From: a virus
Lineage: Duplodnaviria > Caudoviricetes
DNA: 64,000 nucleotides
Virus record (IMG/VR): IMGVR_UViG_3300028909_000001
Strand: one strand, 5' to 3'
Shown: positions 4,935 to 64,000 of the stretch, in pieces
How the letters are laid out: each line of letters starts with the position of its first letter
Numbering within the stretch: the first letter of the stretch is position 1
Position numbers and translations under genes: made by a program
The notes under the pieces: model-generated
What the model was told of the DNA's origin: nothing
Database searches by the model: none
What the model saw: the letters and a program-made list of their open reading frames with translations, nothing else

Positions 4935-5636
4935 TTAGATTTCTGGATTTCCGCCTGGTTCATCTTCACCATTATCATATTCACTATCTTCTGATTTTCT
5001 ATGCTTGCTATATAGATAAGCCCCTAAACCACCTAAACCTGCAGCGCCCAAACCTAATTCATAAGGAACTTTGTTGTTACTAATATGATTGGATAATACT
5101 TCAAATAAAGATTGGGGAGAAATATCATTCTTATGTAAAGCTTGTTCTGCTCCAGTTATAGCTCCATGTATACTAGGTTTAATAGTAGTATTAGCATTTA
5201 CATTATTAAATACATTACCTAATCCTTGACCAGCATAATGAGCACCTATGCCTCCACCTACTCCAAGTCCGGCAGCAGTACCTAGTCCCATGTCACCAAC
5301 TGATTTACTTTTGAATAGTTTACTCAATACGGATTTGGCATCAATATTAGCTGGTTCTGGTTTACTATTTAATTTAAGTTGATTTCCTCCAAAGCCATCT
5401 AATTTAATCTTATTACTTATAGAACCTAGATTAAGTTTACTAGATGGAAAGTCAGAACTAGAAGGAGCTTTAGGTATAGCTAAATTAGAAACAGCTGCCT
5501 CTGGTATAGAAGCACCAGTAGCCTCAGTAGCACCAGTAACTTCAGGTTTAAGTACATTAGCCAATTCTTCAAATGACTTAATAGGATTTGCAGAAGCTTT
5601 AATAAATCCGTTAATAAATGCGTTATTTAGATTCAT
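4935..5636 (-). CDS. FINGFIKA-leader protein with glycine zippers
   Basis: N-terminus MNLNNAFINGFIKASA; GLGTAAGLGVGGGIG and LGLGAAGLGGLG. Confidence 0.75.
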   Translation of the reverse strand: MNLNNAFINGFIKASANPIKSFEELANVLKPEVTGATEATGASIPEAAVSNLAIPKAPSSSDFPSSKLNLGSISNKIKLDGFGGNQLKLNSKPEPANIDAKSVLSKLFKSKSVGDMGLGTAAGLGVGGGIGAHYAGQGLGNVFNNVNANTTIKPSIHGAITGAEQALHKNDISPQSLFEVLSNHISNNKVPYELGLGAAGLGGLGAYLYSKHRKSEDSEYDNGEDEPGGNPEI

Positions 5637-60314: not shown

Positions 60315-60533
60315 ATGAAGAAACTCACTCCAGCTCAGTTTAAAGAGTATATTTCAAATCCTCTAGTTAATGATAGTAAAGTTCGTAGTTATTGTGATAT
60401 TCCTGAAGATAAGTATTTTACTGTAAGTATCTGGCCTGAAGAAGGAATAGTAAATGAAACAAGAGGGCTTCATAGAGTAGTAAAGACTCCTAAAATCTCA
60501 AAGTCTAATCAATCAAAAACTACAACCATTTAG
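60315..60533 (+). CDS. Hypothetical protein
   Basis: ATG ORF. Confidence 0.6.
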   Translation: MKKLTPAQFKEYISNPLVNDSKVRSYCDIPEDKYFTVSIWPEEGIVNETRGLHRVVKTPKISKSNQSKTTTI

Positions 60534-62206
60534 ATATTGTGAGTAGTAAAGAAGCTATTACCATTCCAGAGATGAGCAGCACAAGCACACCAAGTAATAC
60601 AATGAAATGCATCATCAGGGTCACGGTGTCTGTAAAATATCTTGCTTCTAAGGTTATCTTCTTTAACTTCAGTAAATATAGAAAGAATATCCTGGCAAGC
60701 CTCACTACTATCCTCCCAGCAAGGTAATAGTATCTTGGATTTCTTTATTAGTTCAAAGGTGAAACTCATTACTTCACTTCGATTAAGACACCATCTAGTC
60801 TGGCTCCAATCCAAAGCATCAGGTGGAAAGTCTGTATATTGAGTTAAATTCATTTCACGGTAACTTACTAATTGTGTCATTGAGCTATTATATAAGTTAC
60901 CCAGCATTTTTCCTCTAATCGGGTCAGGTCCGGAATCAGTGAAGAGAGTTGGCTGATATACCCTACAAATGTCAGCAATCTCTCTTATCTGGAGTTCATA
61001 GTCGGTATTCTTAAAAATCCTGATATAGAACACTTCTAGATAACCATCATGTCTTAAACCCATTAATGTAAACACAGTTCTGGAGCTTTCAGGATTCACT
61101 CCCCAATCAACACCACCAACTATATACTGGTATCTAGTTGCATTACGCTGATAGATGGTATTCATTGGACCTAGCACACATAATGATTTTAAGTGTTCCT
61201 CAGTAATAGGTTTACTACCAATATCATAAGCCAGACCAAATACTTCGTTGTAAACTTGTAGAACACTATAGTTACTATCTATATTATGAACCTTATTATA
61301 TATTTCCTTCCAATCCTTTTCTCTTTGATTGTAATATGGTAGGATAGGTTGAGCTAGATGAAATCCATATAATTCATGTTCCCCTGGGTTAAAGTCAATC
61401 CACTGACCTATATTAGTATTTAGAAGCTTGCTGCACTTACTGCAACTCAACCCTTGTTTAAGAATCATTTTTAGAGGCTCATTAGCTTCTGTAAGTGAAT
61501 TCCAGTGATTGCAGCCTTCACATTTAGTCATCCATTCCATTTGATGCCCCTTCTTCCAGATAGTATTAATAGTATTATCTGTAGTAAGAGGAGTACCAGC
61601 ATATGTTTCTCGTTTAATTGGACTAATAGCCATGGTTTCATTTACAACTGGTATAATATCCAGATTCATCCCCTGGCACTCGTCGAAGATGTTGGAATCC
61701 GTAGCGGGACCTCTAGTACGTGATGCATCCTCACTAGCATAAGTTAGTATGATATTACTATTACTATCAGCTACTTCCTTAACATAGACATCATTTTTAG
61801 ATAGTTTGCTGATGATCTTTTGTAGTGGTGGGCTGGCAAATCTGGCAGTTAAATAATCATGTGAAAATCTTTTTGTAGCCTGTTCGTTAGGTGCAACATA
61901 CATCATTCGATAGTAATTATATCGAACTAAATTCAAAGCTATCATATTACTGACTAACGTTGATTTTAACGTCTTTCTTGAACACTTTAATAATAACTTT
62001 CTTGGTAGTCCGTCATAGATAGACCGCATCATTGGGAATTTATCCAACTTTTGTGGCTGTCCTTCGTTGTTATATAGATAAAGTTCTACGAGCTTGGATA
62101 GAGGACTATTCAAGAATAGCAGCTGTCTTGCTAGAAATCGTGACTTTTGATCCGTCTGTTTAAACAACGCTGCCGCTTGCTGATATATATTATGGATAGA
62201 AAGCAT
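60530..62206 (-). CDS. terL: Terminase large subunit (lambda GpA-like, with zinc finger)
   Basis: KCSRKTLKST, MMYVAP, RTRG...IFDECQ, AGTP, CxxC...CxxC, GGVDWG, DDAFH. Confidence 0.85.
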   Translation of the reverse strand: MLSIHNIYQQAAALFKQTDQKSRFLARQLLFLNSPLSKLVELYLYNNEGQPQKLDKFPMMRSIYDGLPRKLLLKCSRKTLKSTLVSNMIALNLVRYNYYRMMYVAPNEQATKRFSHDYLTARFASPPLQKIISKLSKNDVYVKEVADSNSNIILTYASEDASRTRGPATDSNIFDECQGMNLDIIPVVNETMAISPIKRETYAGTPLTTDNTINTIWKKGHQMEWMTKCEGCNHWNSLTEANEPLKMILKQGLSCSKCSKLLNTNIGQWIDFNPGEHELYGFHLAQPILPYYNQREKDWKEIYNKVHNIDSNYSVLQVYNEVFGLAYDIGSKPITEEHLKSLCVLGPMNTIYQRNATRYQYIVGGVDWGVNPESSRTVFTLMGLRHDGYLEVFYIRIFKNTDYELQIREIADICRVYQPTLFTDSGPDPIRGKMLGNLYNSSMTQLVSYREMNLTQYTDFPPDALDWSQTRWCLNRSEVMSFTFELIKKSKILLPCWEDSSEACQDILSIFTEVKEDNLRSKIFYRHRDPDDAFHCITWCACAAHLWNGNSFFTTHNI

Positions 62207-62824: not shown

Positions 62825-63733
62825 ATGCAAAAGATATCGTTTGAAGATAAATTTAAGAACTATCTTCGTGCTAGTTATCCCATCCTTTGGATCAGGACTC
62901 ACGAAGAAAGCAGAGTAACCAGAAGTATCATTAATGCGGTTGCTGATGCTAAACAAATAACCATATATAGTTGGGATTGTAAGAGATTGTTGGAGAAATA
63001 TGTTAAAAATGCTGACAAGTCTGTTATTAACAACTTTGAATCCGTTAAAGGTGGTGTTGGCACAAGTACAGGACCTAATGCAGGACCCAAGGATTATGGC
63101 CTGACTAATGCAATTGAGAGCATTAAAGCGTTGCCTAATGGAACTGGACGGAATATTATCATTATGAAGGATTTCCATCCTTATATTGAAGCTCCTGGGC
63201 AAGTCCGGCCTATTCGTAATGCCATTGATGATTTGAAGTGTAAGGGAAATATGTTGGTGTTTATATCTCCTATCATTAAGATTCCTGTAGAGTTGGAGAA
63301 GGAGATTCAAATTCTGGATTTCCACCTCCCTGATGAAAAGCAATTAGAGGGTATTTTAATGTCCGTAGTAGCCATCTTTAATAAAAAGAATGAGGAGAAG
63401 GGTGAGCCGGAAAAGAAGATTGATCCTGACATTAAGCAAGCTACTATTGAAGCTCTGAAAGGACTTACATTTAGTGAAGCTCATGATGCAGTAAGTTTGG
63501 CTATTATTGAGAATCATGAATTTAATGCTTCTTTCGTCCTTAGTGTATTTAACGAGAAGGTTAAACAAGTCAAGCGTGGTGGTCAGTTACAATATCAACA
63601 ATCTGATATTACTTATGAGCATATTGGTGGTTTGGATGGCTTGAAGAAATGGACAGAAGTGAGATCTAAAGCTTATAGTCAGAAAGCTAGAGATTATCAT
63701 TTGCCGTACCCTAAGGGAGTTCTACTGGCTGGT
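62825..63733 (+). CDS. Ycf46-like AAA ATPase, exon 1
   Basis: LRASYPILWIRTHEESR, IIIMKDFH, IGGLDGLKKW...PYPKGVLLAG; breaks at Walker A. Confidence 0.85.
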
Positions 63734-64000
63734 GAATTAAATTGACGAATACCTTTGGTTATGGTAAATAATATATTCGTTAGTTTTTATGCCGGTCGCT
63801 CTAGTAATGGAGCGAAGCTTACAGCGGAAAAAATCGGGGACCCTATTAAAAATGAGGGAATCCGACCTGAAGGTTCTATAGATTATTCTATTTAACCAGG
63901 GGCAGAGCATAGTGGATGTAATAAGCCACCAAGAGACCGCTGCAACCTAGAAATAGGTTGAATATATATGCCGAACTATGTGCGTAAGATACTAAGCCAT
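63734..64000 (+). mobile_element. Group I self-splicing intron (3' end beyond the window)
   Basis: 5' splice site after U63733; IGS GCCGGTCG 63791-63798; P2 63797-63814; P3 CAGCGG/CCGCTG; P4-P6; P7 GCATA/TATGC; P8 with GAAA loop. Confidence 0.88.

Follow-up and report, generated by a model that had tools for sequence, protein, structure and literature searches.

A predicted group I intron within the Walker A motif of an AAA+ ATPase gene from an uncultured jumbo phage

Results

An ATPase gene interrupted within its P-loop

The window, i.e., the whole stretch of 64,000 nucleotides that we analyzed, corresponds to bases 48898–112897 of a virus record that is 151,189 bases long. The source, a jumbo phage from peat, is uncultured and has a genome of about 218 kb. 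Bases past the end of the window were supplied by the locus L001, whose coordinates convert to window coordinates upon addition of 61499. The features surrounding the interruption are the following.

62825–63733, + strand: exon 1 of the AAA+ ATPase gene, 303 codons, N-terminal domain (ORF list, phrog_8638, comparison with the sister phage L006)
63734–64000, + strand: predicted group I intron, first 267 of 306 nt (models R1 and R2, fold); the last 39 nt lie past the window and reach G000:C1:112936, which is L001 2540
63743–63745, + strand: in-frame TGA, three codons into the intron and 5′ of the folded core (ORF reading)
L001 2541–3308, outside the window, same frame as exon 1: exon 2, from IPGTGKT to the stop codon (Pfam, phrog_8638)

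The window also contains a large terminase gene (60530–62206, – strand), whose closest matches are in Salmonella phage Arash and in Vibrio phages, at 27% identity.

A preliminary description of this DNA had placed a break in the reading frame at GVLLAG, and this is indeed what we find. Exon 1 terminates with ...LPYPKGVLLAG (GCT GGT), its final base being the U of the predicted 5′ splice site, and reading through past this point adds only three codons (ELN) before the TGA. The same description expected an in-frame exon downstream that would restore the Walker A motif, and L001 provides exactly that: the coding sequence resumes 306 nt past exon 1, 39 nt outside the window, reads IPGTGKTAIAKATANQFGFPLFQLDIG... 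and runs on for 255 codons before a stop. Exon 2 matches the Pfam profiles for AAA (PF00004, 1.3e-30, from profile position 7) and for the AAA lid domain (PF17862, 2.9e-9). The Walker A motif is complete only once both exons are joined; the protein then has an AAA domain with Walker A and Walker B, plus the lid domain.

When aligned to PHROG 8638, a 568-position family of unknown function, exon 1 covers positions 21–312 and exon 2 positions 313–543, so that the two abut to the residue. Both are gap-free, full-length profile matches devoid of frameshifts or stops. Homologues of the ATPase carry JGI names of the SpoVK/Ycf46/Vps4 family, and by sequence similarity the host gene is classified as a Ycf46/SpoVK-like AAA+ ATPase of PHROG 8638. 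At the C-terminus (L001:3279–3305) the protein reads ...EDRALDPFN and that of the sister phage ...NRRLDEKFS, both resembling an R-x-L-[DE]-x-x-L C-terminal tag.

In the sister phage L006 the gene is one continuous frame, whose front part is 67% identical to exon 1 and which crosses the site as GILLCG-IPGCGKT (uninterrupted sequence ...PKGILLCGIPGCGKT...). A metagenome scan with exon 1 alone returned no relatives; a second scan used an alignment of 15 proteins as the query. Altogether, 46 distinct junction sequences were available from IMG/VR and the JGI metagenomes: ours is the only one interrupted at this position, and the 45 relatives are continuous.

The insert falls between the Gly and Ile codons of Walker A (GVLLAG/IPGTGKT, the slash marking the insertion point). 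It is 306 nt long, a multiple of three, is preceded by T and ends with a G (L001 2540), the start of exon 2 being set by phrog_8638 and by the intron-less relatives. The predicted spliced junction is GCTGGT-ATACCAGG.

The shared frame of the exons and an insert length divisible by three would also suit some other type of recoding or insertion, such as an intein, a group II intron, translational bypassing or an assembly chimera, but we regard all of these as extremely unlikely. An intein is at odds with the stop after three codons, with the presence of stops in all frames and with the lack of HINT motifs in the insert. For a group II intron, 306 nt is far too short, and no such Rfam match was obtained. 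The bypass gap of T4 gene 60 is 50 nt, whereas our insert is six times longer and shows no matching take-off and landing codons. Finally, the same exon 1 product is present on 38 contigs, the longest of 218,290 bases, which argues against an assembly artefact.

Another reading is that there are two separate genes, an N-terminal domain and an AAA module starting at a TTG (L001 2538), whose products assemble without any splicing, the spacer being an intergenic structured RNA. A TTG does occur one codon before IPGTGKT. However, the break lies within the P-loop, between the G and IPGTGKT, so the AAA module would lose the first glycine and the preceding beta strand; no Shine-Dalgarno sequence is found ahead of the TTG; and the relatives have a single continuous gene. 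Moreover, the spacer fully belongs to an intron family (see below) that is found inserted elsewhere, in unrelated genes, at exact codon junctions. On these grounds the two-gene arrangement is very improbable, and below we treat the insert as an intron.

Anatomy of the insert

The elements that we recognize in the insert and at the end of exon 1, all on the + strand, are the following.

63728–63733: P1, 5′ strand, exon GCTGGT; U63733 in a U.G pair (direct reading, MFE fold)
63745–63780: P1-loop extension hairpin ACGAATA / TATTCGT (MFE fold, alignment)
63791–63796: internal guide sequence GCCGGT, P1 3′ strand (direct reading, MFE fold)
63797–63814: P2 hairpin CGCTC / GAGCG (MFE fold)
63822–63827: P3, 5′ strand CAGCGG, pairing with 63937–63942; all 6 pairs covary
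63834–63865: P4 (63834–38 / 63861–65) around P5 (63841–44 / 63855–58) (covariation)
63866–63900: P6 / P6a; inner P6 pairs covary
63905–63911: P7, 5′ strand G-A(bulge)-GCATA (covariation)
63912–63929: P7.1 hairpin GTGG / CCAC, a subgroup IA feature; all 4 pairs covary
63937–63942: P3, 3′ strand CCGCTG, pairing with CAGCGG
63944–63959: P8, AACCTA-GAAA-TAGGTT (covariation)
63967–63972: P7, 3′ strand TATGCC (covariation)
63976–64000, cut by the window end: P9, CTATG ... CATAG (covariation)
5–39 nt past base 64000: P9.1 GTAGAGG / CCTTTAC, tail GATAACAAAATT and terminal G (L001)

The preliminary description had paired the end of the exon (GCTGGT) with GCCGGT, and had listed P2, P3, P4–P6, P7, the GTGG/CCAC hairpin and a GAAA-capped P8. 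All of these are present, and all of the 62 pairs that we propose are standard ones. When the insert was folded together with 12 nt of either exon, without constraints, the minimum free energy (MFE) structure contained P1, the P1-loop hairpin, P2, P3, P4, P5, P6/P6a, P7.1, P8, P9 and P9.1. In this fold CUGGU of the exon pairs with GCCGG, which is the same P1 obtained by direct reading, where GCUGGU faces GCCGGU (intron nucleotides 58–63) and U-1 lies opposite G58. Three of the six P1 pairs are G.U, and the loop of about 55 nt is unusually long; the extension hairpin that it contains is missing from most relatives in the alignment. Just 5′ of the guide sequence, TAT 63788–63790 can pair with the ATA of exon 2 to form a P10 of 3 bp only.

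P7, which a nested fold cannot yield, consists of GCAUA (174–178) and UAUGC (234–238), extended by G172-C239 over the bulged A173. The order of helices, P3-P4-P5-P6-P7-P7.1-P3′-P8-P7′-P9, is that of group I introns, and the P3/P7 pseudoknot is present. G63907-C63971 (G174-C238) is likely to be the guanosine-binding pair. The outer three pairs of P6 are poorly supported, as they are paired in only 47% of cases across the family. No endonuclease ORF is found in the 306-nt intron.

Covariance models and covariation

We built a covariance model, R1, from 14 compact copies of the element, with the structure taken from our sequence and P7 left out. R1 finds 77 copies in 59 loci and scores our intron at 187 bits. 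A second model, R2, was built from 20 relatives, leaving our sequence out, with a structure chosen by RNAalifold (P3, P4, P5, P6, P7.1, P8 and P9.1). Against our insert, R2 gave a full-length match of 152.3 bits (E 5.4e-48), ending exactly on the terminal G.

In the 77-copy alignment, which was fitted to R1 for every helix but P7 and hence favours the modelled helices, 91.1% of the cells are standard pairs, as opposed to 37–45.5% when the partners are slid by 1–3 columns; 50 of the 55 base pairs show double (compensatory) changes, and none of 500 shuffles reached the observed values. P7, which stands outside R1, is 99.5% paired, and the G-C pair following the bulge is invariant in 66 copies.

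The preliminary description considered the P7 of this intron a variant of the common GACTA/TAGTC. The GCATA/TATGC pairing it reported is there, but it is no peculiarity of this copy. P7 occurs in the family in seven compensatory states, the commonest of which, GAGCAUA/UAUGCC, is found in 55 of the 77 aligned copies. The others are GAGCGUA/UACGCC, ACGCAUA/UAUGCU, GAGACUA/UAGUCC, ACGACUA/UAGUCU, ACGAGUA/UACUCU and GAGAGUA/UACUCC, so that GACTA/TAGTC is the state of few members. Compensatory changes also mark P9.1 in the matched 3′ ends (GUAGAGG/CCUUUAC, AUAGAGG/CCUUUAU, GCAGAGG/CCUUUGC, CCAGAGG/CCUUUGG and UUAAAGG/CCUUUAA).

The insert could be a dead intron, a group I descendant that no longer splices, in which case the ATPase would be a pseudogene or would be represented by its N-terminal domain only. 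The lack of an endonuclease gene, a weak P1 with its unusual 55-nt loop, and the presence of a single copy in the record are all compatible with decay. Yet every core helix is intact, the invariant G-C pair of P7 is retained, and the guide sequence still fits the end of the exon. With 152 bits, the leave-one-out score falls in the upper half of the range that R1 gives for family members, and the exons keep uninterrupted, full-length profile matches. We therefore consider a dead intron unlikely, and a functional one, of the subgroup IA type, very probable.

Neither R1 nor R2 found a second copy in the 151-kb record of this phage, and a scan with short motifs for further copies in the phage stayed at chance level. 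Searched with Rfam, R1 and R2, neither the window nor the 151-kb record yielded a further group I intron.

The Rfam model does not see this family

The preliminary description proposed verifying the intron by Infernal with group I models, and with RF00028 this check failed: the isolated intron gave no match, whether at the gathering score or with the cut-off relaxed to E ≤ 10. More generally, Rfam runs on the whole window (gathering score and E 0.5), on the last 1 kb of the window, on L001 (E 1) and on the intron alone (E 10) returned nothing relevant, the single match being a chance one to SNORD75. RF00028 also misses the related introns of two other loci (L002 and L003) and the first intron of a third (L004), which sit in split terminase, tape-measure and polymerase genes, and yet it finds the unrelated second intron of L004, as well as unrelated introns at the Walker B site of ATPase relatives. 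The Rfam group I model has been described as incomplete, and database models may miss phage introns (PMC11878797). The failure to match is a blind spot of the model and no evidence against the intron.

An intron family shared with other phages

When compared by blastn with isolated phages, only the 3′ third of the insert finds matches, with 74–100% identity, in phages of Staphylococcus, Clostridium, Clostridioides, Streptococcus, Lactobacillus and Bacillus, among others; against Staphylococcus phages, identity of the 3′ module is up to 100% over 37 nt. The matching segments occupy the 3′ ends of insertions within genes for the terminase large subunit, the tape-measure protein and polymerase/primase, which are split as a result, and several of the insertions hold a homing or HNH endonuclease gene in between. 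In our intron the module comprises UAUGCCGAAC, P9, P9.1 with the loop AUAAAAAG, and the tail GAUAACA. A pattern derived from the P7 3′ strand and P9.1 indicated that more than 112 IMG/VR loci share it. That our intron is a new addition to a large, previously described family of phage introns is well supported.

The nearest sampled relative of the intron is in L051 (75% identical over 178 nt). On the minus strand of this locus (IMG/VR 3300010365_000372, ~5240–5300), only a few bases separate the start of the intron from an intein-like C-terminus, ...NHNFLANNILVHN and then Cys; an intein and a group I intron thus appear to lie side by side at one site. Some single phage loci of 6–15 kb (L042, L022, L060, L092 and L082) hold three or four family copies each, suggesting bursts of spread within a genome. 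In two further loci (L057:99–326 and L095), a family member is followed by an exon encoding DTGSGKST, i.e., it lies just 5′ of the P-loop in a different gene.

The ATPase gene as an intron target

Among the close homologues of exon 1, 17 proteins are full-length, with 532–575 residues (P0121–P0137), and many others are truncated. Three of the latter (P0003, P0004 and P0010) stop at exactly our site, with LLCG or LLAG followed by KL and a stop. P0005 stops after GTG, P0002, P0007 and P0011 after LFGK, and P0006, P0013, P0014 and P0018 at Walker B (...LID or ...FID).

Insertions in the genes of relatives could be located directly. An intron of the same family (173 bits), with a double-motif LAGLIDADG ORF, occupies GTG/K of Walker A (L160:3334–4446 and L161; IMG/VR 3300010885_073088 and 3300027777_000023). 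Another member of the family, also with a LAGLIDADG ORF, is found at GDTG/VSSR (L133:3569–4659 and L153), and an unclassified insertion of ~1 kb lies at nearly the same place in L144 (3608–4642). Introns of the RF00028 type occur at the Walker B site ID/E (L122:1803–2088; L124:3494–3757 and L143); an 850-nt insertion at the same site (L163:3506–4355, L165 and L175) has the same 5′ end as these introns. The ATPase family is thus invaded by introns of at least two families at about five sites.

The preliminary description regarded a Ycf46-like ATPase as an unusual host for a phage group I intron. In the literature we searched, no report of this ATPase gene as a group I intron host was found, and to that extent the remark stands; but because introns occur at about five sites in its relatives, the gene is a less unusual host than had been supposed. 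We tentatively suggest, with a little less than even confidence, that the Ycf46-like ATPase (PHROG 8638) of this clade of environmental jumbo phages may be an unrecognised hot spot for group I introns, with at least five sites (G/IPG, GTG/K, LFGK/Y, ID/E and GDxG/TSSR) and at least two unrelated families, and that the family found here (P7 GCAUA/UAUGC, GGAUAAAAAGCC P9.1) may constitute a distinct IA-like subgroup, unseen by Rfam and spread well past the phages of Firmicutes.

Discussion

Proposed splicing and its consequences

The identification of the insert as a group I intron, as the preliminary description had it, is supported because three things coincide: an exact exon junction, a full core anatomy, and membership in a covarying family that includes the terminase intron of Lactobacillus phage JCL1032. 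Splicing itself we infer from these features. In the pre-mRNA, the guide GCCGGU would pair with the exon end GCUGGU to form P1, with cleavage expected at its U.G pair. A free guanosine docked in P7, at the G-C pair, would attack after U63733, and the freed exon 1 would in turn attack after the terminal G. GGU would thereby be joined to AUA and the P-loop restored (GVLLAGIPGTGKT).

On unspliced RNA, ribosomes would stop at the UGA and produce a 306-residue N-terminal domain only (303 residues from the exon, then ELN); a working ATPase would therefore depend on splicing. That incomplete splicing might be used to set the ratio of N-terminal domain to full ATPase is an unsupported possibility. As to its origin, homing or recombination from a related intron is the most likely route by which the element arrived. 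Relatives of the intron bearing LAGLIDADG ORFs are found in homologous genes, both four codons downstream and at another site.

There are practical implications for annotation. Gene callers report this ATPase as two products, a "hypothetical protein" of 306 residues and an AAA fragment without the start of the P-loop, and the same error affects many database entries (truncated proteins P0002–P0014). Pipelines based on Rfam overlook the whole family, and a dedicated covariance model would mend many split phage genes. Beyond annotation, a mobile intron family known mainly from Gram-positive phages is extended to another host gene and another phage lineage. The ATPase offers a clean example of several introns aimed at the most conserved motifs of one gene; no new mechanism is involved.

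Comparison with known introns

Our intron and the Rfam model RF00028 (Intron_gpI) have the same order of helices from P3 to P9. The conserved stretches of ours also resemble the R and S elements of the model, with cAGAGcAUAg in ours facing cAGAGACUAc in the model, and AUAUAUGCC facing GAUAUAGUC.

The intron at GTG/K in L160 and L161 belongs to the same RNA family as ours and interrupts the same motif in the same gene family (36% identity); in both cases the exon ends with GGT and the intron with G. It lies, however, four codons downstream (GTG/K versus G/IPG) and is ~1.1 kb long with an endonuclease ORF, whereas ours has no ORF.

Among isolated phages, JCL1032 is credited in PMC6669764, which cites Riipinen and Alatossava 2004, with two group I introns of proven self-splicing activity. 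R1 matched the terminase gene of this phage with 129 bits, within a CDS annotated as joined from two pieces, and the match ends at the exon junction. Like ours, the JCL1032 terminase intron interrupts a gene of the ATPase type and contains GAGCAUAG...UAUGCCGAAC (P7), a P7.1 hairpin, a P9.1 with the GGAUAAAAAGCC module and a GAUAACA tail. It differs in host gene and phage lineage, and the blastn alignment between the two is confined to the final 80 nt of ours (74% identity). Ours has in addition P2 and a long P1 loop, and while splicing is reported for introns of JCL1032, that of ours is a prediction. The terminase intron of LL-H (Mikkonen and Alatossava 1995, cited in PMC4299906) was also considered as a member of the family and was set aside, LL-H not being among the matches of the JCL1032 intron.

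A broader set for comparison is given by the IA1/IA2 introns that Tourasse and Kolsto described in tape-measure, terminase and tail-tube genes of Bacillus cereus prophages, listing as relatives those of ROSA, c-st and JCL1032 (PMC2504315). Phages named in connection with such Gram-positive phage introns (ROSA, Sextaecvirus, phiCP13O and c-st) recur among our BLAST matches. Group I introns of bacteria and phages are reported to be in frame in general and soon to run into an in-frame stop (PMC2504315). Like ours, the IA introns of Gram-positive phages are in frame, have an early stop and occupy the most conserved part of the host gene. They occur with or without a homing endonuclease gene, ours being of the latter kind. 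They reside in tape-measure, terminase, polymerase and tail genes of small Firmicutes phages, whereas ours lies in an AAA+ ATPase gene of a ~218-kb phage.
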